A DNA stretch of 64,000 nucleotides from an uncultured Candidatus Saccharibacteria bacterium (lineage in GTDB: Bacteria; Patescibacteriota; Minisyncoccia; Phycocordibacterales; UBA2100): the NCBI GenBank assembly GCA_964437185.1, contig CAYTFU010000002.1:41296-105295 (forward strand), in the 5' to 3' direction. Shown piece after piece: positions 1,795 to 60,653 of this stretch. The notes under the pieces were generated by a model. It was not told where the DNA came from, made no database searches, and was given only the letters and a program-made list of their open reading frames with translations. Every line of letters starts with the position of its first letter. The first letter of the stretch is position 1. The translations under genes were made by a program, and so were the position numbers.

Positions 1795-1830
1795 GGTCGG
1801 TGGCGGACGAGGCGCTTTTGACATGATAGT

Positions 1831-2742: not shown

Positions 2743-2743
2743 G

Positions 2744-3619: not shown

Positions 3620-3653
3620 TCTTACAGTGAGTGTGACGTGCTATAAATAGCGT

Positions 3654-4604: not shown

Positions 4605-4658
4605 CGAGTACTTTACTGCTGTCCATTAGCGAATCTACCGTATAGTTTCCACATTCTT

Positions 4659-5660: not shown

Positions 5661-5706
5661 ATAATGCCCGTTATGTACTGAATGATCGAAGGGAAAAGCA
5701 GCAATA

Positions 5707-6612: not shown

Positions 6613-6613
6613 A

Positions 6614-7159
6614 ATGGAAATAGGCATAGATATTAAGGCGCTGTCGCTGTCGCGAAGCACAATTAGCGTTCTTCGCAATATTGCTCGATACGACCTCATT
6701 GTTTTTACAAGCAAAAATGCACAAAACTTCTTCAAGAGAGCACTCTCGCGGCTTCAAATAAAGCTGCCGAGGAGCAGCGGGATTGTGCGAGTGGGGCCCC
6801 GAAATGATCTTCTTAAACTTGCCGTGCGGGGGAAGCGGATACTATTTCCGCGCTCCGCTCTAGCTCCGCATGACATTATCAGAGGCTTGCGGTCTAAAGG
6901 ATGCTCGGTACGTGTCATTACTCTATACACAGCACATGGCACAAAATTATCCAAAAAACAAAGACAATTGATACTTAGCGGGAACATTGAGAGATTGTAT
7001 TTCAAAAGCCCTTCTGGCGTACGAGGACTTTTGCAGCAAATGCGGGGACGAAATAAAAAGTTAGTACTTTCAATTCTTGCAGAATGCCTCGGCAAAACTA
7101 CCGCAAGTGCGGCAAAAGCGGAGGGCTTTAAAAAAGTGGTAGTTGCAGGCATACTGTAA
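6614..7159 (+). CDS. hemD: uroporphyrinogen-III synthase, short form
   Basis: IVFTSKNAQNFF and FKSPSGVRGLL (the two FTSxxAV-type motifs) plus RILFPRS. Only 181 aa, so it lacks about 60 N-terminal residues of typical HemD. ATG lies 1 nt after the hemC stop. Confidence 0.7.
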   Translation: MEIGIDIKALSLSRSTISVLRNIARYDLIVFTSKNAQNFFKRALSRLQIKLPRSSGIVRVGPRNDLLKLAVRGKRILFPRSALAPHDIIRGLRSKGCSVRVITLYTAHGTKLSKKQRQLILSGNIERLYFKSPSGVRGLLQQMRGRNKKLVLSILAECLGKTTASAAKAEGFKKVVVAGIL

Positions 7160-7164
7160 GACCT

Positions 7165-7821
7165 ATGCGATACCACAGCTATATTTTTTTCGATGTATGC
7201 CAGAGCTTCCCTGTACCGTCGGCTGCAAAAATCAATACGTACAAAAAGGGTTTTGCTGCGATAGTGGAAAACAATGTCGATGTTGGTGTGCGAGCCTACG
7301 GGACACTAGCACTTAAATCCGGTACGCGATTTATGTTACACATGAATGCAGGTTCTCCCGATGCGATACAGCTTCTTACGCGAAACTTATTGCACTCCGA
7401 GCTCGGGAGGCTTCTCACGATACGCTACACGCTCATGGGCATAACCCGATCATCGCAGTACAATCCAAAATCGGCCCCAAAAGAAAGCGTGCCAGATATG
7501 CCTCATCGCTATCTTGTGGTGTATCCATTCACGAAAACTATCGAATGGTATTTAATGCCGTACGATGAGCGACGGGGTATCATGAAGTCCCACGTTGATG
7601 TCGGCCGCAAATTTAGCAAGAACATATCGCAGCTTCTCTTGTACTCATACGGCATAGACGATCATGAATTCATCGTGTCATACCAAATGAGTGATCTGGA
7701 AGAATTCCAAACCCTCGTGATGGAAATGCGTGAGACCGAAAGCCGTCGTCACACGAAAAATGACCTGCCAATATTCACCTGTATACACATGTCACTTCCC
7801 GAGGCACTCGACATGGTATGA
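7165..7821 (+). CDS. chdC: chlorite dismutase-family coproheme decarboxylase (HemQ/ChdC)
   Basis: YLVVYPFTKTIEWYLMPYDERRGIMKSH...GIDDHEFIVSY pattern typical of HemQ; sits inside the heme cluster. Confidence 0.8.
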   Translation: MRYHSYIFFDVCQSFPVPSAAKINTYKKGFAAIVENNVDVGVRAYGTLALKSGTRFMLHMNAGSPDAIQLLTRNLLHSELGRLLTIRYTLMGITRSSQYNPKSAPKESVPDMPHRYLVVYPFTKTIEWYLMPYDERRGIMKSHVDVGRKFSKNISQLLLYSYGIDDHEFIVSYQMSDLEEFQTLVMEMRETESRRHTKNDLPIFTCIHMSLPEALDMV

Positions 7822-8825
7822 ATGATACATTTCTCCGTGCGGCAAGAGGAGAAAAAACGGAGCAAATCCCGATTTGGTTTATGCGCCAGGCTGGACGATC
7901 GCTTCCTGGCTACCGCAAACTTCGCGAGAAATACAGCGTGCTGGAGCTCGCGCAGACGCCGGAACTCGCAGCGCAGGTCTCAATCGAGCCAGTAGAGCGA
8001 CTGGGAGTGGACGCCGCGATACTCTTTGCAGACATTATGCTTCTGCCTTTGGCGCTCGGTGTAAAACTCGAAATTGTGGATTCTGTGGGCCCTGTTATAG
8101 ACTCACCGATCGAGAGCAGAGCAGATATAGAGCGCCTCCTACCTTTTAAGAAAAGCAATATAACGTACCTGGGAGACACCATTAGACTCCTGCGGCAACG
8201 TCTTGATGTGCCGGTCATCGGTTTTTCTGGCGCTCCTTTCACACTGGCCTCCTACCTCATAGAAGGTAGGCCGACGCGCGACTGGAAGAAGACCAAGAAA
8301 TTCATGCTCGAGGAGCCGGAGTTGTGGGAGCTTTTAATGCGAAAACTTTCGGATTCAGTCATTGGCTACCTAGACGTACAGATACAGGCAGGAGCGCAGG
8401 CAGTGCAACTTTTCGACAGTTGGGCGGGATGTCTTTCGCCAACTGACTACAGGACGCACGTGCTACCGCATGCTCGGAAGATATTTTCCGCCCTGAAAGA
8501 ACGTAAGGTGCCGCGGATACACTTCGGCACGGATACCGGCGCCATGCTGGAGGATTTCGCCGATGTGGACTGCGAAGTCATCGGTGTGGATTGGCGAGTA
8601 GATCTCTCAAAAGCGAGAGAATTGGTCGGCAAGAAAGCGCTGCAAGGCAATCTCGACCCGGCAGTGCTTCTGTGCGATTGGTCTGTAGTCGAAAAGAAGG
8701 TAGACGAGATGCTTTTCAACCTTGGGAACGCGAAAGGTTACATATTCAATCTAGGGCACGGTGTATTGCCTCAAACCGACGACAAGCAGATCAAGCGGCT
8801 TGTCGAATACGTGCATGGTAAATAA
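7818..8825 (+). CDS. hemE: uroporphyrinogen decarboxylase
   Basis: PIWFMRQAGRSLPGY and ILFADI motifs with full-length similarity. ATGA overlap with chdC. Confidence 0.93.
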   Translation: MNDTFLRAARGEKTEQIPIWFMRQAGRSLPGYRKLREKYSVLELAQTPELAAQVSIEPVERLGVDAAILFADIMLLPLALGVKLEIVDSVGPVIDSPIESRADIERLLPFKKSNITYLGDTIRLLRQRLDVPVIGFSGAPFTLASYLIEGRPTRDWKKTKKFMLEEPELWELLMRKLSDSVIGYLDVQIQAGAQAVQLFDSWAGCLSPTDYRTHVLPHARKIFSALKERKVPRIHFGTDTGAMLEDFADVDCEVIGVDWRVDLSKARELVGKKALQGNLDPAVLLCDWSVVEKKVDEMLFNLGNAKGYIFNLGHGVLPQTDDKQIKRLVEYVHGK

Positions 8826-9732
8826 GATCGGCGTGGTTCTGATGACGTACGGTTCCGCTAATACCTCGGCCGGAGTCGAAGCGTATTTCAGGCATATCTA
8901 CGAGAATCCTTCGCCGGAAGCTATTGCAGATTTCAAGAATCGTTATGATCTGGTAGGCGGCTCGCCTCTGGTACGCATCACCAAGCATCAGGCCGTGCTT
9001 CTCCAGAAAAAACTCGGTAAAAAGTACGTAGTGCGCTCCGGGATGCGGCACTCGAAGCCCTTTATCGCCGATGCGGTTGCCAGTCTGAAAAAAGCCAATG
9101 CAAATGAGATTCGCAGCATAATCCTTTCTCCGCAATTCTCATCTTTTATTATGGAGGGCTACAAGAAAGACTTTACGGAGGCCGCAAGAGCAAATGGATT
9201 TACAAACTACATGATCGCAGGGCCATGGCCTGCTGATGAACATTTTGTCAAACTTTTCGCAAAGCGCATAAAGGTAAAGCTCTCCAAACTCGGCAAAGAT
9301 ACACCAGTCGTGTTTACGACTCACAGCTTGCCCCAACGAGTCGTCGATACAGATCCGAGTTATTTAAAACAATTAGACCAGACTATCGTCGCAGTGAGAA
9401 AGCAATTGCCAAAAATAAATTGGTACCAGGGATACCAGAGCGCGGGCCACACGCCCGAGGAATGGCTCAAGCCCGACCTCACCGACATTCTTGCCGACCT
9501 CGCCAAAAAAAGACAAGACAAAGTCCTGATAGTACCGATACAGTTTCTCTCCGACCATTTGGAGATCCTCTATGATCTCGATATTGCTGCACGCGAGCAG
9601 TGCAATGAATTCGGAATAGACTACCATCGTATCGAGTTACCGAATACCGATCCGCTGTTCATACGATCGCTTGAAGAAATCACAAAAAAAGCTGCTCCGC
9701 GATTGCGTGGTGCGCGAGGACGACGCATATAA
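8815..9732 (+). CDS. hemH: ferrochelatase (probably coproporphyrin ferrochelatase)
   Basis: IGVVLMTYGS N-terminus, TTHSLP and IQFLSDHLEILYDLD motifs. Start chosen at the internal ATG overlapping the hemE stop. Confidence 0.88.
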   Translation: MVNKIGVVLMTYGSANTSAGVEAYFRHIYENPSPEAIADFKNRYDLVGGSPLVRITKHQAVLLQKKLGKKYVVRSGMRHSKPFIADAVASLKKANANEIRSIILSPQFSSFIMEGYKKDFTEAARANGFTNYMIAGPWPADEHFVKLFAKRIKVKLSKLGKDTPVVFTTHSLPQRVVDTDPSYLKQLDQTIVAVRKQLPKINWYQGYQSAGHTPEEWLKPDLTDILADLAKKRQDKVLIVPIQFLSDHLEILYDLDIAAREQCNEFGIDYHRIELPNTDPLFIRSLEEITKKAAPRLRGARGRRI

Positions 9733-11226: not shown

Positions 11227-13152
11227 ATGACTATCAATGAAATTCGAGCAAAATATTTTGAGTACTTTAAGAAAAACGGGCACACCATCATTCCCTCAGC
11301 CTCGGTAGTTCCGCAAAATGATCCGACTACGCTCTTCACCGGTTCGGGCATGCAACCACTCGTGCCATACCTCCTTGGGGAGCCGCATCCCGAAGGTAAC
11401 AGACTTGTAAATAGTCAAAAAAGTTTTCGCGCGGAGGATATAGAGGAGGTCGGCGACAACCGCCACACGACCTTTTTTGAGATGCTCGGCAATTGGTCGC
11501 TCGGAGATTACTTTAAGAGAGAGCAGTTGCCTTTCTTTTTTACATTTCTTACGGAGGAAATTGGTCTCGATCCGCAGAAGCTTTACGTTACGGCCTTTAT
11601 TGGAGACGAAAAAAACAGCGTCCCGCGTGATACTGAATCAGCAGAAGTTTGGACAAAACTCTTTGCGGAAAAAGGCATTGATGCAAAAGTCGTCGCGATA
11701 GGATCTGAGGCAGATGGATATCGTCTCGGAATGCAGGGCGGTCGGATATTCTACTATGAAGCAAGAAAGAATTGGTGGAGCAGAGCAGGAGTGCCAGAAA
11801 ATATGCCACCTGGCGAGCCCGGCGGACCGGATTCGGAAGTATTTTACGACTTCGAGACGCCCCACGATCCCAAATTCGGCGCCGAGTGCCATCCCAATTG
11901 CGATTGCGGCCGATTCTTGGAAATTGGGAATTCGGTATTTATGCAGTACATCAAGAAGCCTGACGGCTCGTTTGCGCTTTTACCGAAACAGAATGTGGAC
12001 TTTGGCGGTGGCCTTGAACGCATCGCGGCCGCAGCGCGAGGGAATCCTGACGTATTTCAAATCGATGTCTTTGCGGACGTCATCGGAATGCTCGAACATT
12101 TCTCGAAAAAAGATTATCTCGACAGCCGCTTCACGCGATCATTCCGTATCATCGCGGATCACATGCGCGCCGCCACCATCATGCTCGAAGCCGGAGTGCG
12201 GCCATCAAATACCGAGCGCGGTTACGTTCTCCGCCGCCTGCTCCGTCGCGCAGCACAGCACGCGCTAAAACTCGGCGTTGCCCGCGGACAAGAGGGAGAC
12301 AGCATGCTGGTGCGTTGCACCGTAAATTACATAGAAAAATACAAACAGGCGTACCCGGAGTTTTCTGGAGACGACGTGTATCAAATGATTTCAGAAGAGA
12401 TCTGGAAGGAAGAGCGACAGTTTGCGCGAACACTCGAAGCGGGCATGAAAGAATTTGAGAAGGTCGCCGAGGGCGGACACATATCGGGCGCGCAAGCTTC
12501 AGTGTTATTTACCACCCACGGTTTCCCGTTTGAGATGACGACTGAATTGGCGCATGAGCGAGGGATCGATGTCGACGAAGACGGCTTCAAAAACGAAATG
12601 AAGAAACACCAAGATCTTTCGCGTGCGGGCAGTGAGCAAAAGTTTAAGGGGGGACTCGCCGATACTTCGGAGCAAACGACGCGACTCCATACAACGCACC
12701 ACATTTTGCTGAAAGCTCTACAAATCGTCCTCGGGCCATCCGTCAAGCAGCGGGGAAGCAACATTACAAAAGAGCGCCTTCGTATCGACTTCTCGCATGG
12801 CGCGAAAATGACACCCGACCAGATTAAAGACGTCGAACGTATTGTGAACGAAAACATTCAAGAGCACCTCCCCATGATCCGCTCCACTCTTCCCAAAGAG
12901 GAGGCCGAAAAACTTGGTGCTGAGCATGAATTTGGTGCTAAGTACCCCGATGTCGTATCGGTGTATTCACTTGGCCCCGTGGGAGCTACCGTGGAGGATC
13001 CGCAGTTTGATCGCGCATTTTCCATCGAGTTCTGCGGAGGACCCCATGTCTCGAACACATCTCAGATCGAAGAAGGGGGGTTATTTAAAATTTTGAAAGA
13101 GGAGGCGGTAGCATCGGGCATCCGCCGCATCAAGGCGGTTTTGATAACATAG
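11227..13152 (+). CDS. alaS: alanyl-tRNA synthetase, short form lacking the C-Ala domain
   Basis: FTGSGMQP and FFEMLGNWSLGDYFK motifs; editing domain HTTHHIL and CGGPHV. The ORF ends right after the editing domain (641 aa). Confidence 0.93.
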   Translation: MTINEIRAKYFEYFKKNGHTIIPSASVVPQNDPTTLFTGSGMQPLVPYLLGEPHPEGNRLVNSQKSFRAEDIEEVGDNRHTTFFEMLGNWSLGDYFKREQLPFFFTFLTEEIGLDPQKLYVTAFIGDEKNSVPRDTESAEVWTKLFAEKGIDAKVVAIGSEADGYRLGMQGGRIFYYEARKNWWSRAGVPENMPPGEPGGPDSEVFYDFETPHDPKFGAECHPNCDCGRFLEIGNSVFMQYIKKPDGSFALLPKQNVDFGGGLERIAAAARGNPDVFQIDVFADVIGMLEHFSKKDYLDSRFTRSFRIIADHMRAATIMLEAGVRPSNTERGYVLRRLLRRAAQHALKLGVARGQEGDSMLVRCTVNYIEKYKQAYPEFSGDDVYQMISEEIWKEERQFARTLEAGMKEFEKVAEGGHISGAQASVLFTTHGFPFEMTTELAHERGIDVDEDGFKNEMKKHQDLSRAGSEQKFKGGLADTSEQTTRLHTTHHILLKALQIVLGPSVKQRGSNITKERLRIDFSHGAKMTPDQIKDVERIVNENIQEHLPMIRSTLPKEEAEKLGAEHEFGAKYPDVVSVYSLGPVGATVEDPQFDRAFSIEFCGGPHVSNTSQIEEGGLFKILKEEAVASGIRRIKAVLIT

Positions 13153-13185
13153 CTACTCACAGACCCGCAGAAATCGCGCACCTAT

Positions 13186-14370
13186 GTGGAGCGTGTTCGC
13201 GATATACTTGAGAGCATGCGAGGCTTGTTTGGAAAGCATTCACACGATAAAACAGTGGGCGTCATCCGGCTCGATGGCGAGGCGAGCGTTGCGATTGTGC
13301 GGCAGAGAGATGAAGTCCCCTCTGAAATTCTTGCTGCCGAGCTCAGTCCCGTCACATTTGAAGAGCGCCCTCCAGAGTCGGTCGCTGCGGGGACGCCCGC
13401 TATTTCTGCGGTCTTTGAGGCGATGCATACCAAGTACGCGGCACTCGTCGCTCGCGGAATTCCACCTGTGAGTGAGGTGCAGGTAACTCTCGGCGATCCA
13501 TGGAGCACATCAAAGGTCGTCCGCGCAACCAAAAAATTTGGTAGCGACGTCATCATTACCGAAAAAATGATTGCCGACCTCGCCAAAGAACTGCTCGCCG
13601 AAAATTCGACTAAAGATCAGGATCTATTCGAGGCCAGCGTCGTAAGAACGGAGTTGAATGGGTACAACTCTGGCAAGCCGGAGAGGAAACGTGCTCGGCA
13701 ACTCTCGCTTTCAGTGCTGATGAGCACATTTCAGAGTGGTTCCCGAGCGTCAGTACAGCGAATCGTTGAAAAACTCTTTCCACATGTCATTCCGACCTTT
13801 CGATCATCTATCCGCGCCAACACGACAGTGATTCAAGAGGTGATTCCTGACTCAAAAGATTACCTTATCGTAACGATCTTAAGCGGGGCCACAGCGTTCA
13901 CCGTAGTCCGCGACGGCACAATGGGTGAATCTTCGATATCAGAGATCGGGATGGCCAGCATCGTAAAAAGAATATCCGCGAGCGGAATGCCTGAAGAGAC
14001 TCTCACAACACTCAAGATGCTTGCACGAGATCAATGTTCAGAGCCCGCATGCGATATAATCCGTGCGTCTATGGGTACGATTGAGCCCGAGCTTGTGCGT
14101 GATTATGGCGAGGCACTCGGTAAGTGCGCATTTGAGCGGCGGGTACCCAACACGCTCGTGTTGTTATCACATCCCGATATATTGCCCTGGATGGCGCGCT
14201 TTTTTGCACGCATCGACTTTGCACAATTTACTCTCACGACACAACCCTTCGATGTGCGCGGGGTCCAAATTGGAGATCTGTCGAAATTGATTTCTCGAGC
14301 CGATGGGGTAGTGGTCGATTCGCCTTTGGCGACGGCATGCGGACTTGTCAACATCGAGGCGAGTCGGTAG
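13186..14370 (+). CDS. hypothetical cytoplasmic protein
   Basis: 394 aa ORF with a GTG start and no recognised motif. Weak resemblance to a degenerate actin/FtsA-PilM-like fold; speculative. Confidence 0.45.
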   Translation: MERVRDILESMRGLFGKHSHDKTVGVIRLDGEASVAIVRQRDEVPSEILAAELSPVTFEERPPESVAAGTPAISAVFEAMHTKYAALVARGIPPVSEVQVTLGDPWSTSKVVRATKKFGSDVIITEKMIADLAKELLAENSTKDQDLFEASVVRTELNGYNSGKPERKRARQLSLSVLMSTFQSGSRASVQRIVEKLFPHVIPTFRSSIRANTTVIQEVIPDSKDYLIVTILSGATAFTVVRDGTMGESSISEIGMASIVKRISASGMPEETLTTLKMLARDQCSEPACDIIRASMGTIEPELVRDYGEALGKCAFERRVPNTLVLLSHPDILPWMARFFARIDFAQFTLTTQPFDVRGVQIGDLSKLISRADGVVVDSPLATACGLVNIEASR

Positions 14371-14402
14371 GCTGGTCCTCGTTGTATACTCTCTTGTACA
14401 AT

Positions 14403-15791
14403 ATGGCCAAAGACTATTTCCAAGACATATTACCGCCTTCCGACGATTCCACGATCAGGTCTTCGGCGACTGGGCATGACGACCCGATCGCGGACACCGG
14501 TGCAGAGCAGGGGCGCAGCATTCGCGATATTCAACCGCCTGTGCGTCGTCCGGCGGCGCGCGTTACCACGATTCCGCCTCGCCCAAGTTCTCGAACTAAT
14601 GAATCGTTCGAAAACGGGGAGCCGATCCACAAAGTCTCGATGGTCAGGCACCTTACGTCGTGGTGGATATGGGTTCTTGCGGCAGTTGCCATTCTGACGA
14701 TCTCTGTTCTTCTTATTTTTGCCTACCGACCCACGACTATCACTCTCACCCCAAAGTCTCGCACCGTGACTCTCAATGAGACCGCATCCTTCACCGCGTT
14801 TCCGACTTCTGAGTCTTTCGATGGGCTTACATACACCACCCACGCTTTCGACATCGAAGATTCGGAAGTTATAGCCGCGCAGGGTACGAGGCATGTCGAA
14901 AGCAAGGCATCGGGCAGCGTGACCGTCTACAACGAGTATTCAGCAACCAGTGTCAAACTCATCAAAAACACGCGCTTCGAGACTCCCGATGGCCTCATTT
15001 TCAGGACTCCCGCAGACGTTGTCATTCCAGGCAAGTCTGGATCAACGCCTGGTCAGATCAGAATTACCGTGATTGCCGATAGTGCGGGAGAGAAATACAA
15101 TGTGGGGCCGATTTCCCGATTCACGCTTCCAGGTCTTAAATCTGGCGATATGTACTCCAAAGTCTACGCGAAATCCACCATCCCCATGAGCGGAGGAATA
15201 ATCGGTGAAGAGCCCGCAACCGCCCCAGGCGTCCTGACGTCTGCAATTTCCGCCGTTCGCGGCCGCCTCGCCGAAAAGGCGCGGGAGATGGCACTCGCGC
15301 AGTCAGGTGATTCAGGTACGACCTTTTTCCCGCAACTCGCACAAGTCACCTATCAGTCTCTTCCCAGCACCACCGAGGCAGGTTCCTCGGTTCGAATCCA
15401 TGAGCGTGCTCATGTAGAAATGCCCGCAATGCCGACCGATCAATTCGCGCATGCCATCGCGCGCGCGAGTGGCGAGGACGTCGCTCCGGGATCTATCCGA
15501 ATGCTTCCCCTCGACGGATTCACCGCGCGCATCGCGACAAGTTCTGCGATCGCGTTTGGTTCGGATGCGATTCCTTTTTCACTCGTAGGCGAAGTGCGCC
15601 TCATCTGGAACATCGACACGGCCGCTCTTTCAGCCGCAATCGCTGGCAGAGAAAGTGCTGCGTTTCAAACAGTGGTTGATGGTTTTTCCGGAATTCAGGA
15701 GGCCCGCGCGCGCATTATGCCCCCGTGGAGTAAATCGTTTCCGAGCAATGCGCTAGACATTCAGATCGTTCTGGCAGAGGTCTCTGAATGA
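14403..15791 (+). CDS. hypothetical single-pass membrane protein with large extracytoplasmic domain
   Basis: 462 aa from the internal ATG (MAKDYFQDILPP). Pro/Arg-rich N-terminus, then TM WWIWVLAAVAILTISVLLIFAY. Confidence 0.5.
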   Translation: MAKDYFQDILPPSDDSTIRSSATGHDDPIADTGAEQGRSIRDIQPPVRRPAARVTTIPPRPSSRTNESFENGEPIHKVSMVRHLTSWWIWVLAAVAILTISVLLIFAYRPTTITLTPKSRTVTLNETASFTAFPTSESFDGLTYTTHAFDIEDSEVIAAQGTRHVESKASGSVTVYNEYSATSVKLIKNTRFETPDGLIFRTPADVVIPGKSGSTPGQIRITVIADSAGEKYNVGPISRFTLPGLKSGDMYSKVYAKSTIPMSGGIIGEEPATAPGVLTSAISAVRGRLAEKAREMALAQSGDSGTTFFPQLAQVTYQSLPSTTEAGSSVRIHERAHVEMPAMPTDQFAHAIARASGEDVAPGSIRMLPLDGFTARIATSSAIAFGSDAIPFSLVGEVRLIWNIDTAALSAAIAGRESAAFQTVVDGFSGIQEARARIMPPWSKSFPSNALDIQIVLAEVSE

Positions 15792-15864
15792 CGCCACACA
15801 ACCCGATCACCCTCTGCCATGCACGCTTTCATTCTTCCGCATTCCCAGTTCGTCACCCAGTGAT

Positions 15865-15893
15865 TTGACTGATTATTGTTAAGCTGCTATATT
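15865..15893 (+). promoter_or_regulatory. sigma70-like promoter for the infA-ribosomal operon
   Basis: TTGACT, 17 nt spacer, TATATT, ending 16 nt upstream of the infA ATG. Confidence 0.45.
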
Positions 15894-15909
15894 TCTGAGC
15901 GCAGATCAT

Positions 15910-16116
15910 ATGTCAGAACCAGTGGTAGTAGGAGGAGTCGTCGATGAGGCGCTCCCCAATACGCTGTTTCGAATAAAGCTCGAAGACGGCGCAAATGTAC
16001 TCGCGTACCTTGCCGGCAAGATGCGACTGCATAGAATTAAAGTACTTGTTGGTGATCGTGTGGAGGTTCGCTTGGATCCATATGGAGGACGAGCGCGCAT
16101 CACAAGGCGCCTATAA
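15910..16116 (+). CDS. infA: translation initiation factor IF-1
   Basis: 68 aa with the S1-like pattern LPNTLFRIKLEDGANVLAYLAGKMR; synteny with rpmJ and rpsM. Confidence 0.93.
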   Translation: MSEPVVVGGVVDEALPNTLFRIKLEDGANVLAYLAGKMRLHRIKVLVGDRVEVRLDPYGGRARITRRL

Positions 16117-16134
16117 AATGTTTGAGATGTTTTC

Positions 16135-16248
16135 ATGAAAATTAAGTCATCCGTTAAAAAAATCTGTCCTCACTGCGAATCGGTGAAGCGAAAGGGTCGC
16201 TTGTGGGTCATCTGCAAGAATCCTCGCCATAAGCAGCGACAAGGATAA
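16135..16248 (+). CDS. rpmJ: 50S ribosomal protein L36
   Basis: Not in the ORF track (37 aa). [37 protein letters not shown] read directly from the DNA; canonical position. Confidence 0.9.
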
Positions 16249-16258
16249 TCACATACTC

Positions 16259-16639
16259 ATGCGCATTGCCGGAATTACAATACCAGAAGAGAAAAGGCTC
16301 GAGATCGGGCTTACCGCGATTTACGGTGTCGGCCGCGCGCGCGCTCAGAGCACCCTTGCCGCTCTTTCTTTAGACTTCGGTATCAGACCAAAAGATCTGA
16401 CCGATAAGCAGGAGGGAGCGCTTCGAGATGCCATCGAGAAGTTCCAGCTGGAAGGGGAGTTGCGCCGCGATATCAGCAGCAACATTCGTCGCCTCAAAGA
16501 CATCAAGTCATACCGAGGCAGCCGCCACGCAAAGCACCTGCCAGCCCGCGGCCAGCGATCCAAGACCAACTCTCGGACAGTTCGCGGGAATGTGCGTAAA
16601 ACCATGACGAGCGGCAGACGTAAGTTGGAGAAGACATGA
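16259..16639 (+). CDS. rpsM: 30S ribosomal protein S13
   Basis: MRIAGITIP...LTAIYGVGR...YRGSRH pattern and synteny. Confidence 0.95.
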   Translation: MRIAGITIPEEKRLEIGLTAIYGVGRARAQSTLAALSLDFGIRPKDLTDKQEGALRDAIEKFQLEGELRRDISSNIRRLKDIKSYRGSRHAKHLPARGQRSKTNSRTVRGNVRKTMTSGRRKLEKT

Positions 16640-16653
16640 TGTAAATAATTTAT

Positions 16654-17088
16654 ATGGGAAAAAAACGAATCATACGAAAAAGCGGGGGCTCCGTAGACCA
16701 GGGACTGAAGTCACGTTCGCTTGCGCGCGTGGCCAAGAAAAACATCGTCGTTGGAACGCTGCATATTAATGCGACCTACAACAACACGAAGGTAATGCTC
16801 ACCGACCGCAACGGCAATGCTGTTGCGTGGTCGTCCTCTGGATCACTGGGATTTGCCGGCGCTAAAAAGGGCACGCCGTTTGCCGCTGCCAAAGTAGGGG
16901 AACTCGTCGGTGACAAAGCTGCGATTATTGGAATAAAAGAGGTGGATGTCATAATCCGCGGCGTAGGAGCTGGACGCGAGTCTGCGCTTCGAGGCTTTGC
17001 GGGAAAGGGCATCGAGGTGGTGCGCATTGCAGACGACACTCCCGTGCCTCACAATGGCCCCCGACCGCCTAAGCCGCGCCGAATATAA
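16654..17088 (+). CDS. rpsK: 30S ribosomal protein S11
   Basis: NNTKVMLTDRNGNAVAWSSSGSLGF...TPFAA...PHNGPRPPKPRR. Confidence 0.95.
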   Translation: MGKKRIIRKSGGSVDQGLKSRSLARVAKKNIVVGTLHINATYNNTKVMLTDRNGNAVAWSSSGSLGFAGAKKGTPFAAAKVGELVGDKAAIIGIKEVDVIIRGVGAGRESALRGFAGKGIEVVRIADDTPVPHNGPRPPKPRRI

Positions 17089-48614: not shown

Positions 48615-51600
48615 TTATTCCTTCACAACGAAATTGACCAAGCGGCCTGGCACGAGGATAGTACGTACAATTTCTCTTCCAGCAACGCGCTCGCTCACTG
48701 CCTTCCTCGCTTCCCCTTCTATTGCTGTCTTATCCGCATCAGACGCAACATCGATCTGCGCGCGTGTTTTGCCGTTGACTTGCACTGCAATTGTCATCGT
48801 CTCAGATTTAAGATATTCCGCTTTGTAAACGGGCCACGTTTGTAAGTGGACGGACGACTTGTGGCGCTCCGACCAGAGTTCTTCCGCCATGTGAGGGGCA
48901 AACGGCGCCAGGATTTTCAAGAACGTGTCCCACTGTACTGCGCCAATTTTACCCTCTGACTCAATGGCATTGAGTAGTATCATGAGCTGACTAATGGCGG
49001 TGTTAAATTTTAGCGCCGCGATGTCCTCCCCTACTTTCTTTATCGCTTTGTGCAGAACATTCTGGAGCGCATCAACCTCCCCTTTCGCAACCATAAACTG
49101 GATTTTCCACGCACGCTCCAAAAATCGCCTCACCCCCACCACCCCATCGGGATTCCATGGATAGCTCGACACTTCGTTGTATGGCCCGATAAACGCGAGA
49201 TACATGCGCACCGTATCCGATCCGAGCTGCGCGACTACGGCATCTGGATCGATCACATTCCCGCGTGATTTACTCATCTTTTGACCGTCGGGGCCCATGA
49301 TGAGGGATCGGTTCATGCGACGCGTATACGGCTCTTTGTCTTTCACCAAGCCGAGATCGTACATGGCCTTCTGCCAAAAACGGCTATACAGCACGTGCAT
49401 AGTCGTATGTTCAGCGCCTCCCGAATACAAATCTATCGGCATCCACTTCGCAAGTTTTTTCGGATCTGCAAATTTCGATCTGTTTTTTGGATCACAGTAG
49501 CGCAAAAAATACCACGAAGAGTCTATGAATGTATCGAACGTATCAGTCTCTCGCTCCGCCGGCTTTTTACATTGCGGGCACTTTACCTTCACCCACTTCG
49601 TAGCCTTCGCAAGCGGCGACTTGCCACTCCCCTCCGGTAGATAGTCTTTGACCTCCGGCAACTTCACAGGCAAATCTTTATTCGGCACCGCGACAGGCCC
49701 GCACACGGCGCAGTGAATAATCGGTATGGGCACTCCCCAATATCTCTGACGCGACACGATCCAGTCACGAAGTTTGTAAGTCGTCTTTACTCGTCCATAC
49801 TTTGCCGTAATTCTTCCGATTGCTTCGCGATTCATGAGGCCAGTAAACTCTCCGGAGTCAACAAGTATTCCCTCCTCTGTATATGGCTGGTATCCGGTCA
49901 CGCGCTTCCAAGCAATCATCACATCGGGACGATTGATAAACCGAGAAAATTCTTCGGGCCCGTACCAACCCACATCATGACGTGACTTTTCGTGCTCGGA
50001 AACAATATCTTGCTCGCCGTTTTCTAGACTGTACAAAAGCGGCGTAAAATCTACGAGACGATTTACCTTTTTCTCTACGCTGTAATATTTTCCCCATATA
50101 TGACCGCCGAGAGATCGCACAAGCTTTGCGCTCCGATATCCAGTCTCCTCGCGAATTTCGCGTATGCCAGCCTCCACGGCATCTTCTCCTTCTTCAATAC
50201 CACCCGAGACGCACTCATTGACCTTCGTCGGTTTGAAGTGCACTCCGAGGTATTTGTCCTCCGACCAGTGCTTTACAATCGCAAACACAGATTTTCGGCG
50301 CTCAAGCGGTTCTCCTTCGCGTACCGCATCAAGCCCGCCCTTGAAAAGCGAGAGTGGTTCAACCACCTCCTTAATTGGTAGTTTAAACTTAGTAGCAAAC
50401 TCATGGTCGCGCTCGTCGTGCGCAGGGACTGCCATAATCGCGCCTGTACCGTAGTGGGCAAGCACATAATCTGCTATCCAAACGGGGATCTTCTCTCCTG
50501 TCGCCGGATTGATGGCTCTCACACCCTTCAACTCCACTCCCGTTTTCTCTTTCTGGTCTGCCATCCTCTCCAGCTCCGTCTTTCGCTTTGATGCCTCAAC
50601 GTATGTTTTTATTTCGTCAGCGTTTGCGCACAGACCACTCCGTATAAAATCCGAGACCCAACGGTGCTCAGGAGCCAATACCAGGTACGTCGCGCCGAAA
50701 AGCGTGTCCGCGCGCGTGGTAAAGACTCGCATAGTAGGCCTGAGCCACATAAGCACGTCTGGCTCAGTGTCACCTGTAAAGTGCGTCGCATTCGATACAC
50801 CTAGCTCAACGCGCGTACCGAGCAAATCCGCAAGGGCTTGCGCCTGTTGATCTGAGATGGCGTGATCGCGTGGATCGTGCAAAACCGTAAATGAACCAAC
50901 GTTTCGCTTAATAGCTTCAGAATCAAATTTCCACGACCACGTTTTTTCAAACAGTCTCTTTTTGTCTTTAAACTTCGTATCCACAAAGCCCCCGATGGTT
51001 ACCAGCCGCGCAACGGGCTTCGTAAGTTGCTCCGCCACTTTGAGCGCGAGCACGGCCCCGAGACTGTGGCCAACGATCACAGTGCGTTCATCGTACGTCG
51101 TCGCGCTTATTGCGTACTCGACCTGCTCGCGCTCCGTGGGATTATCAGTGTTGGGAAGGCGCGGAATAACTACTTCGTGACCCATTTTTTCCAGCTCCGC
51201 CTTCACCCACTTCCACCGCGGCGCATCAGGAGTTCCGCCAAATCCGTGAAAAATCACAAACTTGTACTTCTGACCAAGATCGAGGACAAAATCTATCTCG
51301 GCTCCTTCACTTCGACCAATCCAATTTCTCTGAGATTCTTTGATCTGCTCCGGCCAGTCCAGTCCATCGAGGTCGTCGATCAGTCGGTCTGCATAATCAG
51401 TAATCTTTATATTCCACTGCAACATTTTCCTCTGCACGACTTCGCTGTCGCATCGCTCACATCTTCCAGAAACCACTTGTTCATTTGCGAGTACCGTCTT
51501 GTCCTTCGGGCACCAGTTTACCGCGGTCTCTTTACGATATGCGAGCCCCTTTTTGAAAAATTCGAGAAAAAGCCATTGCGTCCATTTGTAGTACGCCGGA

Positions 51601-51986
51601 TCACACGTAATCACTTCTCTCGACCAATCAAAGGATGTGCCCATGGAGCGGATCTGCTTCTTCATGAACTCGATATTCCTGTACGTCCATGTACGCGGAT
51701 TTATGTTGTTCTTTATGGCAGCGTTTTCGGCGGGCAAACCAAACGCATCGAAGCCGATCGGATAAAGCACATTTTTCCCCTGCATCCGCTCCGCGCGCGC
51801 AAAAATATCTGGTACAGCAAATGCGTACCAGTGACCGACGTGCAGATTTCCCGAGGGGTATGGAAACTCGACGAGTAGGTAGGAATTTTTCTTCCCTTTT
51901 ACTGAATCTCGGGTCCTGTAAAGTTTCGATTTATCCCATCGCGCTTGCCACTTTCGTTCAATTGCCCGATGATCATATTTTTTCAT
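48615..51986 (-). CDS. leuS: leucyl-tRNA synthetase carrying two inserted hydrolase domains (Ser-hydrolase and Nudix)
   Basis: PYPSGNLHVGH, Zn finger CERCD, editing TTRADT and GTGAIMAVPAHDERD, KMSKS and the C-terminal tRNA-binding domain are all present. 1123 aa because of inserts at about aa 236-416 and 545-700. Confidence 0.93.
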   Translation of the reverse strand: MKKYDHRAIERKWQARWDKSKLYRTRDSVKGKKNSYLLVEFPYPSGNLHVGHWYAFAVPDIFARAERMQGKNVLYPIGFDAFGLPAENAAIKNNINPRTWTYRNIEFMKKQIRSMGTSFDWSREVITCDPAYYKWTQWLFLEFFKKGLAYRKETAVNWCPKDKTVLANEQVVSGRCERCDSEVVQRKMLQWNIKITDYADRLIDDLDGLDWPEQIKESQRNWIGRSEGAEIDFVLDLGQKYKFVIFHGFGGTPDAPRWKWVKAELEKMGHEVVIPRLPNTDNPTEREQVEYAISATTYDERTVIVGHSLGAVLALKVAEQLTKPVARLVTIGGFVDTKFKDKKRLFEKTWSWKFDSEAIKRNVGSFTVLHDPRDHAISDQQAQALADLLGTRVELGVSNATHFTGDTEPDVLMWLRPTMRVFTTRADTLFGATYLVLAPEHRWVSDFIRSGLCANADEIKTYVEASKRKTELERMADQKEKTGVELKGVRAINPATGEKIPVWIADYVLAHYGTGAIMAVPAHDERDHEFATKFKLPIKEVVEPLSLFKGGLDAVREGEPLERRKSVFAIVKHWSEDKYLGVHFKPTKVNECVSGGIEEGEDAVEAGIREIREETGYRSAKLVRSLGGHIWGKYYSVEKKVNRLVDFTPLLYSLENGEQDIVSEHEKSRHDVGWYGPEEFSRFINRPDVMIAWKRVTGYQPYTEEGILVDSGEFTGLMNREAIGRITAKYGRVKTTYKLRDWIVSRQRYWGVPIPIIHCAVCGPVAVPNKDLPVKLPEVKDYLPEGSGKSPLAKATKWVKVKCPQCKKPAERETDTFDTFIDSSWYFLRYCDPKNRSKFADPKKLAKWMPIDLYSGGAEHTTMHVLYSRFWQKAMYDLGLVKDKEPYTRRMNRSLIMGPDGQKMSKSRGNVIDPDAVVAQLGSDTVRMYLAFIGPYNEVSSYPWNPDGVVGVRRFLERAWKIQFMVAKGEVDALQNVLHKAIKKVGEDIAALKFNTAISQLMILLNAIESEGKIGAVQWDTFLKILAPFAPHMAEELWSERHKSSVHLQTWPVYKAEYLKSETMTIAVQVNGKTRAQIDVASDADKTAIEGEARKAVSERVAGREIVRTILVPGRLVNFVVKE

Positions 51987-55214: not shown

Positions 55215-55742
55215 TCAGAGTGTATCACGCCGCACCATGGTCTCTCGCTCTAACTTTTCCGCACGCTCTTTCTCTGCTTCTGTTTCAAATTCATCCACAA
55301 CATCATGCTTTCCGATCTGGCCGAGCCGGAACGCTCGCACTGTTTTTAAGCTGAAATAAAAGGAAGACAAAAATATTATTGCAATGGTGAGTCGGAGGAT
55401 AAAGGATATTGGGCTAGATGTATCGTACTGCAAAATGCCCCACGTGCCGTACACGAGGACTCCCACTCCAGAAGCAATAGTACTTCCCATAGAAACAGCC
55501 GGATCCTTTGGACTGGTTAACGCTGCAAGAGCGACAATAACCAACGCGCCCACCACCATGAAAGGAAACTCGACGCGCAAGTTACTTCCGTAGAGAGGCG
55601 CGCCGATAAGCATAAGCGTCGCGGCCCCGATCAAAAGTTGCCGAGCGTATGAACCGTAGTAGTGAGGAATATGCTCAAAGTGCCCAAGGCCTGGCATGTT
55701 CCATATCGAATCAACACGGCCGCCGTCTCCACCTTCTGACAT
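55215..55742 (-). CDS. hypothetical membrane protein (4 TM)
   Basis: Start moved to the internal ATG (MSEGGDGG) to avoid overlapping the upstream gene; hydrophobic helices. Confidence 0.5.
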   Translation of the reverse strand: MSEGGDGGRVDSIWNMPGLGHFEHIPHYYGSYARQLLIGAATLMLIGAPLYGSNLRVEFPFMVVGALVIVALAALTSPKDPAVSMGSTIASGVGVLVYGTWGILQYDTSSPISFILRLTIAIIFLSSFYFSLKTVRAFRLGQIGKHDVVDEFETEAEKERAEKLERETMVRRDTL

Positions 55743-55759
55743 GTCACAATGATGACACG

Positions 55760-56053
55760 CTATTGTTTTCCCGCAAGTGCGAGTATTGCCTTTGTATCGT
55801 CTTCGCCTTTCACCGCATTGCGGTGGGTGTATCCACAGCTCTCGCATAGGTGGATAATCCGATATTGATTCGTTGAGCCCTCTATTCTCAAAGGCTTCAT
55901 CATTCCCCCACAGGTAGCCGCTCTGTCGCCAGGATGAACGTCTACGTGCTTACTCCAAAGGCATCGTGGGCAATGATTTGTGTATCCGCTCCCCTTCACT
56001 TGCGCGCCACAATGTTCGCACGCAAAATTCTCGACCGTTTTCGTAAAACTCAT
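55760..56053 (-). CDS. RNHCP domain zinc-ribbon protein
   Basis: CEHCG...TNHCPRCLWSKHVD...CGGMM...CESCG. Confidence 0.7.
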   Translation of the reverse strand: MSFTKTVENFACEHCGAQVKGSGYTNHCPRCLWSKHVDVHPGDRAATCGGMMKPLRIEGSTNQYRIIHLCESCGYTHRNAVKGEDDTKAILALAGKQ

Positions 56054-56088: not shown

Positions 56089-57312
56089 CTACTGAATCGT
56101 TACCACCGTATTTTTACTCGTCGCGGTGCCTGCGGAGTTGGTGCATTGCAACGCGAGAGAAATAGTGCCCGCGATTGACGTGAGTGGCGCACCCAATACC
56201 TTCGCCCCTTCACCCCCTATCGCAAACGGCTGCCCGTTTTGCGACACAGTGCAAGACCCCGCTTGCATTCCGACGGATGACCAAACGATAAGCGTGCTGC
56301 CATTTCTCGTAACGGTCGGTGATTGCGCAATGATGAGCGATGCAGACGACATTGCAATTTGGGGAGTCGTACTCGATGTTTGACCGACTCCAGGAGAACT
56401 TGTCGCGCCCGTAGATATTCCACTACCTGTTCCAGTCTGCGAACCACTATTGGTACCTGATCCCTGCGTCGAGCCGCCCGTTCCACCCCCGCCGCTTGCA
56501 CCAGACCCCCCACTTGTACTTGTGCTACCAAGGCCAGCCAACCACTGAGCTAGCCCTGCGGCAATACTAGGCGTGGCGGATGTGTTGTAATTTGTTTGAA
56601 AAGTTCGGTATGGATCGGCCGTTGGCGGAATGAAGGTAGGAGGATAGTACTCGTTCATGCCCACATCCGCATCACTGAACGCCAGCGAGATTCCGGATGC
56701 ATCTACATAGTTACCAGGCACGTTCACCGCAACCCCCGCCACTTTCAATTTCGCTGCAAAAGAATTCAAAATATCCGTGTACGTTTTTCCAGCAAAGATT
56801 TTTGGATTGTACAGCGTTTCTTTCACAAACACCGTCGAAGCGAGTGCATTTGGAGTCTGCATGTAGCCAGCAATAAACCTCACCGACCCGGCTTGGCCTA
56901 GGAAATGGCCTAAGTAAAGACCGAGGGATGGGTCAATTTTTGCCTGAATAAAAAGTTTTTCATTTCTGTCTAATGTTTCTCTCAGTGCAAAGGCGGTTAC
57001 CTTGGCGGAGGTCACGGGATCTCGTCGGCTTTCCAATCTAAGCGAGCTACCGTACAGAGCTTTAGTAGCGCGCAACCATGAATCCTCAGTCCATTGGAAC
57101 ATTCCGACAGCGGTCGAAGTAGTATTCGCGATGGTTGCGTTACCGTTACTCTCTATATTTGCAATTTTTCCCAAAATACCTACAGGCAACCGATACTGTT
57201 TTGTTTCCAGTTCAAAAAAGATTTGATTCAGAGATACGGTGATGAGGGCGTTCGCAGACCCGAAAAGAAAAAGAACTACGAGCGCTCCTAAAATAACCGG
57301 TCGCCTTAGCAT
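56089..57312 (-). CDS. secreted lytic-transglycosylase-like protein with G/S/T-rich linker and C-terminal beta domain
   Basis: Signal peptide and SLT-like IESNGN...AVGMFQWT. A low-complexity GSTSTSGGSGASGGGG linker precedes a C-terminal ~88 aa shared with the next gene. Confidence 0.6.
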   Translation of the reverse strand: MLRRPVILGALVVLFLFGSANALITVSLNQIFFELETKQYRLPVGILGKIANIESNGNATIANTTSTAVGMFQWTEDSWLRATKALYGSSLRLESRRDPVTSAKVTAFALRETLDRNEKLFIQAKIDPSLGLYLGHFLGQAGSVRFIAGYMQTPNALASTVFVKETLYNPKIFAGKTYTDILNSFAAKLKVAGVAVNVPGNYVDASGISLAFSDADVGMNEYYPPTFIPPTADPYRTFQTNYNTSATPSIAAGLAQWLAGLGSTSTSGGSGASGGGGTGGSTQGSGTNSGSQTGTGSGISTGATSSPGVGQTSSTTPQIAMSSASLIIAQSPTVTRNGSTLIVWSSVGMQAGSCTVSQNGQPFAIGGEGAKVLGAPLTSIAGTISLALQCTNSAGTATSKNTVVTIQ

Positions 57313-57381
57313 TTGATCATTATATACTCACTCCTTAATGAAGGATGGAATTGTGTTGAAAACCTTTAGCGATGCGTCGTG

Positions 57382-58689
57382 TTATTGGACGACTATATCA
57401 ACGACACGGCGATTCAAAACGCCACCGAAATCGGTGCAGTCGAACTTAATCGTGGTCGTACCGGATTGTGAAGTGTGTGGGACACTAAGAACCGAACTCC
57501 CCTCCGAACCGACTCCAAAAGGAATGTCGTTTTGGGTAATGGTGCACGATGTAGGGATCATACCGACAGAGGTCCACGCAATAACGGTGCTTCCATTGCG
57601 CGGAATGCTGCGAGTTTGCGCAATGATGAGCGAGGCAGCGGGAATTGACCTCGTTGACGTGGAGTAAATCGGGGTAACCGAGACCGCGGGAGGTTGAGTG
57701 GTTGGCTGAGTCTGCATCGGGGTCCCGCCAGTTGTGTACCCCTGATTTGTCGTCATTGGGTTAAACGCTTGCATCGGCGGCATCGGCGGTGGAGGCGGCA
57801 TAAACGGTGTCGGAGAAAACATCGGCTGGGACATGTATGGCATCGATTGTCCGCATGGCATAAGCATCATCGGGGCAGTGCTCACCATACACATCTGATT
57901 TTGCTGAGTCGGGTTATAGGGATTTCCAAAAGGATTTCCACCCATTACGTTGTTTCCAACGGCCGAATACGCAGTGCCCGTTTCGTCGGATACCCATATT
58001 CCGTTCGGAGGGACGGGTGGCTGCATGCCGCCGATGGTGCCGGAAGGCTCAATGTGCCACGGCTCAACAACCATTGGGTAGCGAAGCCCAAAACCCGAGT
58101 AATTCCGGTGTGCCCATGCACACGAAGATATTTGTGCGATACAATCGGCAGTTGCTTGCGATCCGACTCCCGAACCTTTCAATTTTCCCTCGTAGTGAAG
58201 ATCGGCGGCGAGGCCATAATTGTGTTTTGATTGCCCTGGCGGCGCAACGGGAGCTCCCGTCCTTCCTGCAGCAACATACGTTGCGTACATTTGTTTTTGG
58301 CGTTCAACGGATCTGTATCCCGATACAATAGTGATATTTTTTCCCTCTGCGGCCGCCAGTTTCGTCAACCCATACAGTCTGCAGGCAAATATAGGATTCA
58401 AACCGCTTACATCGGTGGGATAACCGGATCTGTTGATTTGTTGCAGGTACAAAAACGGATTTTCGGTGCAGCCGCCATAGATGAGCGGTTTATCTCTATC
58501 GCAAAACTGCCCACCTGCTGGAATGGTCACGCCCGCCGCCTTCAGGCCTTCTTTTTCTTCCGGAGTAATCTCGTGGCAGCCAGGATCTATCTCCCCATAC
58601 GACGCCGAGGGCAAAATTATTACTACAAGCAGCACCAGACCTGAGAGGACTTTTGCCAAGTTCACGATTAAAAGTGTAGCACACAGCAA
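57382..58689 (-). CDS. secreted M15-family (VanY-like) peptidase with Pro/Met-rich linker and shared C-terminal beta domain
   Basis: VSGYRSVERQ, SKHNYGLAADL and EPWHIEP motifs. The start is uncertain: TTG at 58689 or GTG at 58665 (MNLAKVLSGLVLL signal peptide). Confidence 0.75.
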   Translation of the reverse strand: MLCATLLIVNLAKVLSGLVLLVVIILPSASYGEIDPGCHEITPEEKEGLKAAGVTIPAGGQFCDRDKPLIYGGCTENPFLYLQQINRSGYPTDVSGLNPIFACRLYGLTKLAAAEGKNITIVSGYRSVERQKQMYATYVAAGRTGAPVAPPGQSKHNYGLAADLHYEGKLKGSGVGSQATADCIAQISSCAWAHRNYSGFGLRYPMVVEPWHIEPSGTIGGMQPPVPPNGIWVSDETGTAYSAVGNNVMGGNPFGNPYNPTQQNQMCMVSTAPMMLMPCGQSMPYMSQPMFSPTPFMPPPPPMPPMQAFNPMTTNQGYTTGGTPMQTQPTTQPPAVSVTPIYSTSTRSIPAASLIIAQTRSIPRNGSTVIAWTSVGMIPTSCTITQNDIPFGVGSEGSSVLSVPHTSQSGTTTIKFDCTDFGGVLNRRVVDIVVQ

Positions 58690-58694
58690 AAGCT

Positions 58695-58710
58695 CGACGA
58701 CGGCTCGTCG
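58695..58710 (-). terminator. candidate intrinsic terminator after atpC
   Basis: CGACGA-gccg-TCGTCG on the minus strand, followed by agcTTTTgc. Confidence 0.4.
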
Positions 58711-58748: not shown

Positions 58749-59000
58749 TTACAACAACACAACCGCCTTGTTACTTGAGCACTCCACAACACCGGATTCG
58801 ATTTGAAATTCCCGCGTTTCGCCCGCAGCGTTGAGCACGCGAATCGTTCCTTTCTTCAGCGTCGTCACGATCGGTTCATGGTGCGGAAGAATGGTGAACA
58901 CACCCGCAGCGCCCGGGAGCGTTGCCGATCGTGCTTGGCTGTCGAAACGCGTCTCGCCGACACTTGCGATCGTAAGCAAAAAAGTGTTTGGCTGATGCAT
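58749..59000 (-). CDS. atpC: F-type ATP synthase epsilon subunit, beta-sandwich only
   Basis: 83 aa. GVFTILPHHEPIVTTLKKG pattern; lies directly downstream of atpD. Confidence 0.85.
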   Translation of the reverse strand: MHQPNTFLLTIASVGETRFDSQARSATLPGAAGVFTILPHHEPIVTTLKKGTIRVLNAAGETREFQIESGVVECSSNKAVVLL

Positions 59001-59001
59001 A

Positions 59002-60653
<1,652 letters not shown>

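Follow-up and report, generated by a model that had tools for sequence, protein, structure and literature searches.

Why do two neighbouring genes for exported wall hydrolases of different catalytic types end in the same domain, and what remains constant when they are followed into related genomes? The two genes lie on the minus strand of a 64,000-nucleotide stretch of DNA from an uncultured Candidatus Saccharibacteria bacterium (contig CAYTFU010000002.1); this whole stretch is called the window below, and positions are counted from its first letter. Gene A (56089–57312) encodes a lytic transglycosylase of 407 amino acids (aa), and gene B (57382–58689) encodes a VanY/M15 zinc peptidase of the LAS type, 435 aa long if read from the TTG at 58689. 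Both products are predicted to be exported and consist of an N-terminal catalytic head, a low-complexity spacer of some 80–130 residues and a C-terminal module. A sequence-only reading had described the adjacent genes with their signal peptides and their SLT-like and VanY/M15 heads, the two compositionally biased linkers, a novel shared module of about 88 residues and a short DNA identity between the two copies, and the open reading frames (ORFs), database searches, motifs and composition reported here bear out each of these points. It had also suggested that the genes form a coordinated two-enzyme set, and this part did not survive the comparison with relatives: the corresponding slot in their genomes holds one, two or three genes that carry the module, and their heads differ. 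What is conserved is therefore the slot together with the module, and not the pairing of an SLT enzyme with an M15 enzyme. In the interpretation that we favour, with a probability of roughly 0.5, the module would be a shared targeting or retention domain carried by exchangeable lytic heads at a recombination-prone locus.

The relationship between the two proteins is confined to their ends. BLASTP of A against B aligned the C-termini only (E = 5e-22), with a gapless core of 89 residues that is 44% identical. The module occupies aa 319–407 of A (56092–56358, minus strand) and aa 347–435 of B (57385–57651, minus strand), and a family profile run over the 64-kb window recovered these two copies and no third. 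At the N-terminal edge of the module, the 18 nucleotides that encode SLIIAQ are identical in gene A (56323–56340) and gene B (57616–57633); given both amino-acid sequences and the codon usage of the window, such a run has a probability of about 0.001. It is embedded in an 89-nucleotide stretch that is 73% identical between the genes.

According to our analysis, the module is a new sequence family with an Ig/FN3-like fold. The AlphaFold model is a seven-strand immunoglobulin (Ig)/FN3-like sandwich with a predicted local distance difference test score (pLDDT) of 96.8. This answers the question, raised in the sequence-only reading, of whether the module is Ig-like or carbohydrate-binding: the fold is of a generic Ig/FN3-like kind, and the fold search returned neither a recognisable carbohydrate-binding-module family nor any other functional family. 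Searches of the full A and B proteins against Pfam and NCBIfam left the module region without a match, and a scan of 76 modules of the family, with a limit of E ≤ 1, brought up nothing beyond faint hits on various Ig-like models (best E = 0.003–0.02). A profile search of the PDB sequences with the module gave nothing significant, the best hits being PKD (E = 0.78) and FN3 (E = 2.7). No significant match to LysM, SH3b, PG_binding, SPOR, CWB, Big_x, PKD, FN3 or He_PIG was found, and thus the module corresponds to none of these known wall-binding or accessory domains.

Conservation within the family is strong and patterned. The consensus reads AAxIIAQPxxVxRGxxxLVSWxSVGMxxxSCxV...GNEGSK...GTxTFxLxCT. 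Across the 76 modules W26, C36 and C72 (W344, C354 and C390 of gene A) are invariant, and Q12, S28, M31, G51 and G77 are nearly so, the first four each being present in at least 90% of the modules. Judged from its position in strand B of the model, W26 is probably a core residue, as in FN3 domains, and the strand positions of C36 and C72 suggest that the two cysteines may form a disulfide. An invariant cysteine pair is what one would expect in a domain located outside the cytoplasm.

An exhaustive HMMER search of 1.84 billion cluster representatives matched 103 proteins, and in 95 of them the module stands at the extreme C-terminus; the remaining eight, giant proteins made of Ig repeats, match weakly and only in part. 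A word-indexed homologue search with the alignment of the two modules gave no match. Among the proteins recovered by HMMER, one (P0002) is identical to A, a protein that is also present in public metagenome assemblies, and another (P0001) is B with a later start called. Signal peptides were recognised in 31 of the 37 N-terminally complete members, and head and module are separated by a spacer with a median of about 87 residues.

The heads of the family are diverse. Pfam identified SLT in 15, DPBB_1 in six and VanY in two of the 95 full proteins, again with no match in the module region. At least nine head families were delineated as Louvain communities in a stricter BLAST comparison; their boundaries are approximate and one of them, fam2, is heterogeneous (single-linkage clustering of the heads was abandoned, since the low-complexity linkers merged almost everything). 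Part of fam2 is RlpA-like DPBB and matches the DPBB protein PA4485 at E = 1e-4. The core of fam4 matches PHROG 873 "endolysin" (E = 1e-10) and a lytic region of a tape-measure protein. Profiles of fam3 and fam4 found nothing among PDB sequences, nor in Pfam at E ≤ 0.5. Judging from these sequence matches, all heads to which a type could be assigned appear to be peptidoglycan-lytic, namely SLT, RlpA-like DPBB, two M15 types and a phage-lysin-like core.

To place the module genes in their genomic context, we assembled 41 related loci by three independent routes. Exact-protein look-ups of the proteins found by HMMER gave six of them (L005 and L041–L045). A GTDB scan with query A4 gave three (L006–L008), two from records labelled Candidatus Saccharibacteria and one from a record labelled Candidatus Nomurabacteria; the first GTDB scan, with query A1, gave none, and A3 was too diverse for a pattern. 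A metagenome scan with the peptide pattern [LIV]VSW[TS]SV[GN]M gave the remainder (L009–L040). Several of the metagenome contig names contain "Hain-H43-01um" or "Hain-H51-01um", which we read as wells of the Hainich aquifer, the apparent origin of L010, L029, L032 and L033, and a 0.1-µm filter fraction.

In all 41 loci the module genes, one, two or three in number, occupy the same slot. The order is atpA-atpG-atpD-atpC, one to three module genes, a gene with an RNHCP domain, a protein with four transmembrane segments (4-TM), Flavodoxin_2 and often then ychF. The window follows the same arrangement, with atpC, B, A and RNHCP in succession: the left border is atpC, for the ATP synthase epsilon subunit (58749–59000, minus strand; Pfam ATP-synt_DE_N), and the right border is the RNHCP-domain zinc-ribbon gene (55760–56053, minus strand; Pfam RNHCP, E = 2e-29). 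In the 29 loci with an upstream flank, atpC lies directly 5' of the first module gene, the sole exception being L006, in which a gene for a 1066-aa PG_binding_1/LamG/PKD protein (1773–4973) stands between them. In 39 of the 41 loci RNHCP comes next after the last module gene, with at most a tiny called ORF between (35 aa, in L044). In L038 it is found one gene further on, within an inverted RNHCP-TM pair, and the contig of L018 stops before this point. Within the 41 loci examined, the module is thus confined to one slot in one narrow clade.

The borders of this slot are stable, whereas its content is not. This is a narrow clade: no pair of AtpD sequences falls below 83% identity. Between the window and L006 the housekeeping neighbours are well conserved (AtpD 93%, YchF 88.5%, Flavodoxin_2 83% and RNHCP 71% identity), whereas the ortholog of A is only 46% identical and the head of B has no counterpart in L006 detectable by BLAST; a different M15 subtype is found at that position. 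Along the AtpD tree the slot is filled in a patchy manner, and even close relatives have different heads. The window carries M15a and SLT, L006 carries M15b and SLT, and L041 combines M15b with a P0008-like head. Three genes are present in L009 (SLT, fam3 and a P0046-type head), L010 has a fam2/fam4-like head together with fam3, L005 has fam4 and DPBB, and several loci contain a single SLT, DPBB, fam3 or fam4 gene. Heads, therefore, turn over between close relatives.

The modules do not follow their heads in this turnover. The nearest-neighbour module is carried by a head of the same family in only 40 of 87 cases, and modules group by genome or lineage across heads, as do the three modules of L009, which are attached to three different heads, and the group formed by the window and L006. 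In L044 a single protein of 667 aa (422–2425) joins an N-terminal region of the fam4 type to an SLT domain and the module, and so bears two head types. Another footprint is seen in L007, where the 3' part of atpC is present in a second, incomplete copy (6314–6529) between the two module genes. As protein, this fragment is 76% identical to the atpC product of L005 and 72% to the resident one, and its DNA is 79% identical to the resident gene over 190 nt. The fragment looks like the scar of a cassette insertion by recombination. Recombinational exchange of cassettes by way of the conserved left flank would be expected to leave such footprints, and on the right side recombination could make use of the repeat found at the edge of the module in the window.

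Returning to the window, we examined the two heads individually. The signal peptide of A (57247–57312, minus strand), identified from the sequence and a hydrophobic-segment scan, is MLRRPVILGALVVLFLFGSANA, followed by LI. The head comprises aa 23–240 (56593–57246, minus strand) and is joined to the module by a Gly/Ser/Thr-rich spacer of low complexity (aa 241–318; 56359–56592, minus strand; 21 Gly, 17 Ser, 14 Thr). Pfam SLT (PF01464) matches aa 36–116 with E = 1.9e-5 and 24.7 bits, above the gathering score of 21.3, and PHROG 4067 "transglycosylase" matches the head with E = 7.8e-15. The head has a lysozyme-like, alpha-helical catalytic fold, and the structurally closest protein is the phiKZ endolysin gp144. 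The motifs IESNGN (aa 53–58, with E54-S55) and GMFQW (aa 70–74) are both kept in the family consensus; the putative catalytic Glu lies in the first of them, an assignment based on the motif and not on a residue-by-residue superposition on a solved catalytic Glu. A is, thus, a family-1 lytic transglycosylase of the phiKZ-gp144 type, with predicted export by Sec. Within 57313–57343 the only good Shine-Dalgarno match is AAGGAG at 57331–57336, 18 nt 5' of the ATG of A. It stands at the usual distance from a four-codon mini-ORF (ATG ATC AAA TGC TAA) that overlaps the start codon of A, an arrangement that may represent translational coupling or chance.

In B, a VanY/M15 catalytic domain (aa 98–214; 58048–58398, minus strand) is followed by a low-complexity spacer rich in Pro, Thr, Met and Gln (aa 216–346; 57652–58044, minus strand; 26 Pro, 17 Thr, 15 Met, 13 Gly, 11 Gln). 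Pfam VanY matches the domain with E = 6.7e-15 and 55.5 bits against a gathering score of 25. The metal- and substrate-binding motifs are present as SGYRS (aa 123–127), SKHNYGLAADL (aa 154–164; H-x6-D, with H156 and D163) and EPWHIEP (aa 209–215, with H212). B is, therefore, a VanY/LAS-type zinc peptidase, also with predicted Sec export. Its nearest solved relatives in the PDB (E = 7e-6 to 1e-5) are LysB4 and Ply500, phage endolysins with L-Ala-D-Glu peptidase activity, and the LD-carboxypeptidases YodJ and LdcB. Because these relatives include both specificities, the family of B is clear but the bond that it cleaves is not, and all NCBIfam equivalog models stayed far under their cut-offs (LdcB, for example, with 23 bits against 275).

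The start of B deserves a comment. A terminator-like hairpin between atpC and B (58695–58710, minus strand) was recognised by a consensus match alone, in a scan whose hit count did not exceed the shuffled-sequence level. Its T-rich tail runs over the TTG at 58689, which makes this start doubtful, and the true start is probably the GTG at 58665 or the TTG at 58659. The signal peptide, which ends in AKVLSGLVLLVVIILPSASYG followed by EI (58594–58689, minus strand, when read from the first TTG; sequence and hydrophobic-segment scan), is retained with each of the three starts, so that the secretion signal does not depend on the choice. A and B are co-directional and probably co-transcribed. Searches of the window with Rfam gave no RNA family, and promoter and terminator scans gave sites that were not above the level of shuffled sequence.

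Several neighbours of the slot have features of their own. The membrane protein encoded 3' of RNHCP (55215–55847, minus strand) is about 175 aa long, has approximately four hydrophobic helices and a charged C-terminal tail, and is present in nearly all loci. It is 61% identical between the window and L006 and thus diverges faster than Flavodoxin_2, YchF and AtpD (83–93%). We considered it as a receptor of the module and set it aside, as its external loops are predicted to be tiny. In L005 a 1485-aa HemolysinCabind/SpaA_4/PG_binding_1 protein, like the 1066-aa protein of L006 a large protein of surface type, is encoded a few genes downstream of the slot (12628–17085). Within the ATP-synthase operon of L005 (3089–4402) and L041 (332–949), Ham1p_like (ITPase) and NUDIX genes separate atpG from atpD, and in the window a 91-aa ORF (60378–60653) lies at this position. 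A DUF5671 gene, typical of Candidate Phyla Radiation (CPR) bacteria, is found near the slot in the window. Taken with the labels of the GTDB relatives and the sample names, it speaks for a place among the Patescibacteria, though not for any one class.

Further away, the window encodes wall-related proteins that lack the module. On the plus strand, between 1831 and 4604, two Peptidase_M14 genes (1831–2742 and 2744–3619) are followed by a canonical VanY (3654–4604, 126 bits), and a Peptidase_M23, an FtsW/RodA protein and a MurG-type glycosyltransferase are encoded within 88–44910. A contiguous haem cluster at 4659–9732 (plus strand) comprises ALAD (HemB), porphobilinogen deaminase, HemD, a HemQ-type chlorite-dismutase-like protein, uroporphyrinogen decarboxylase and ferrochelatase. 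Such a cluster is unusual for a CPR-type genome, and haem genes have previously been mentioned in oxic-adapted groundwater CPR (PMC12577380). The leucyl-tRNA synthetase (LeuRS) of 1123 aa (48615–51986, minus strand) contains an alpha/beta-hydrolase (approximately aa 243–450) and a NUDIX domain (aa 591–684) inserted between the synthetase domains. The LeuRS of L042 (8756–9944) also has an internal NUDIX match, and the insertion therefore looks like a feature of the clade and not an assembly artefact.

How, then, might the module act? If it is a targeting or retention domain, this common domain would hold whichever lytic head is present at one defined ligand of the envelope. The preferred candidate for this ligand would be an envelope component of the producer itself that is specific to the lineage, with a long tether holding the head, and the heads would be replaced by recombination, with the conserved flanks and the module itself providing the homology. 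We favour a ligand on the producer's envelope because the modules track lineage and not enzyme type, because the layout resembles that of surface-anchored proteins in monoderm bacteria, and because the genes follow the ATP-synthase operon in a core locus. Binding, the identity of the ligand and the mechanism of recombination are the steps that we infer.

Several observations weigh against this interpretation. Binding and ligand are both deduced from sequence and a predicted fold, and the module lacks the conserved cluster of surface aromatics typical of carbohydrate-binding modules, its only conserved aromatics being W26 and F68; it is, moreover, only mildly basic (median pI 8.8). The statement that all heads are lytic extends to the assigned types, and fam3, the P0028, P0046 and P0054 types and the P0008-like group fall outside it. 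Phage contigs carrying the module would have spoken for binding to the wall of the producer, and three scans of IMG/VR viral contigs with different sub-alignments of the module, limited in sensitivity to exact peptide patterns, found none. Lastly, fam4 modules cluster with fam4 heads, a partial exception to the mixing described above, which means that the swapping of heads may not account for the whole pattern, part of which could stem from differential loss out of a multi-gene array in an ancestor.

This last point leads to an explanation in which the module has no specific ligand, being a generic stabilising, spacer or oligomerisation domain, and the variety of the slot arose as members of an old tandem array of paralogous autolysins were lost differentially. 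Ig-like domains often act as spacers, the fold search gives no functional family, and tandem arrays of two or three genes do exist, in keeping with the clustering of fam4. It is at odds with the strong conservation of polar motifs (Q12, S28, M31 and G51; QP, SVGM and NEGSK) and with the mixing of modules across head families, and a spacer that ends the chain, beyond a long disordered linker, would have nothing to hold apart. A passive spacer is unlikely in view of the conserved polar motifs and of the place of the module at the terminus, and we regard the explanation as a whole as quite improbable. An even smaller chance is given to the module being an export or sorting signal, similar to the C-terminal domains of type IX cargo, that is recognised and perhaps cleaved by a lineage-specific machinery. 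The position at the very C-terminus in 95 of 103 representatives, the seven-strand Ig-like fold of about 88 residues and the diverse cargo behind linkers would fit such a role. Sorting signals, however, usually mark many scattered cargo genes, whereas the copies with examined context are all in one slot, and the Por_Secre_tail and TIGR04183-type models of Pfam and NCBIfam gave no match; it is these two facts that make the role unlikely. Furthermore, most complete members already possess Sec signal peptides, and an outer membrane is not known from CPR cells.

The proposal that the enzymes form a host-directed arsenal has to be taken more seriously, although we consider it rather doubtful. An epibiont would use them to open the wall of its host, the module would bind the host surface or hold the enzymes at the contact site, and heads would be swapped to match the walls of different hosts. 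Divergence and head replacement are very fast in comparison with the housekeeping neighbours, as is typical of externally facing proteins; the heads resemble phage lysins (gp144, LysB4 and Ply500; PHROG 873, 2276 and 4067); and spacers of 60–130 or more residues could bridge a gap between cells. The second, canonical VanY of the window (126 bits, against 55 for B) and the other module-free wall peptidases could cover housekeeping functions, the relatives are labelled Patescibacteria, and the sample names point to groundwater and small-filter fractions. Against this, neither an episymbiotic lifestyle nor a host is indicated by the data considered here. The genome encodes its own wall machinery (FtsW/RodA, MurG, the second VanY, M23 and two M14 peptidases), which counts against an attack on a host, and with these genes and even a haem pathway it is less reduced than classical epibionts. 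The locus follows directly on the ATP-synthase operon in a core syntenic context and not in an island, and we found no link between such enzymes and host attack by CPR in open-access PubMed Central papers and bioRxiv preprints. In a bolder and, in our view, unlikely version, the slot between atpC and RNHCP would be a dedicated diversity locus of a groundwater Patescibacteria clade, in which a constant, lineage-matched Ig-like docking domain would hold peptidoglycan-lytic warheads, swapped by recombination, at the epibiont surface or contact site, so that each strain would have a tethered "can-opener" set tuned to the chemistry of its host's wall.

Comparison with known systems helps to delimit what is new in the targeting or retention interpretation. 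It is already known that modular wall hydrolases share C-terminal targeting domains. As in Gram-positive autolysins and phage endolysins, with their SH3b, LysM, choline-binding, CWB2 or SLH domains, an N-terminal head is followed by a linker and a C-terminal non-catalytic domain, one such domain is common to several catalytic types, and domains are shuffled between genes. The present module differs in that it falls outside those families, its linkers are unusually long and all copies with examined context occur in one slot of one clade, and its targeting role is a deduction. The layout, with a distal head, a spacer and a C-terminal anchor, also recalls Gram-positive surface proteins, in which the spacer spans the wall. 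Among Ig-like, FN3 and PKD accessory domains we compared the FN3 domain of chitinase A1, the FN3-like modules of CbhA, the Big domain B1 of CelAly and the Ig-like domain of Csd4. Identities to these are 5–19%, with no significant profile match, and, unlike them, the module has an invariant cysteine pair and the motifs QP, SW-SVGM and NEGSK, and is always terminal and single-copy.

Two further systems are similar in part. The C-terminal domains of type IX substrates (Por_Secre_tail) are likewise Ig-like sandwiches of about 80–100 residues at the extreme C-terminus of diverse exported enzymes, whereas the module shows no sequence match to them, belongs to a single locus in contrast to genome-wide cargo, and comes from a lineage that is not known to have a type IX system. 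Polymorphic toxin/Rhs-type loci and capsule or O-antigen loci resemble the slot in their conserved flanks, in content that varies between close relatives, in the combination of a constant domain with variable functional domains and in a recombination footprint such as that of L007. In our case the orientation is reversed, with the variable part N-terminal and the constant part C-terminal, and the products are wall enzymes. There is also no variable immunity gene: RNHCP (64–70% identity), the 4-TM protein and Flavodoxin_2 are kept whatever the head. New here are the domain family, the fact that it is limited to a single syntenic slot and the way in which heads turn over at this slot in a CPR clade; no description of the domain or locus in CPR or Saccharibacteria was found in the open-access literature and preprints named above.

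How ultra-small CPR bacteria remodel their own walls or breach those of their hosts is largely unknown, and most of their surface proteins are unannotated. Our analysis shows that a compact, confidently foldable domain with clear motifs marks a set of predicted secreted wall-lytic enzymes in one clade, and that these enzymes are encoded at a single, fast-turning-over locus bracketed by housekeeping genes. This one small domain offers a handle for ligand probing. The locus also provides a natural experiment, in which the same slot and the same domain carry different heads in close relatives, and from which it may be learned whether the choice of head follows host or habitat. Should the ligand turn out to be a host structure, the module would help to determine, at the molecular level, how CPR bacteria interact with their hosts; should it belong to the cell itself, monoderm-like bacteria would have in the module a non-covalent surface anchor of a new type.

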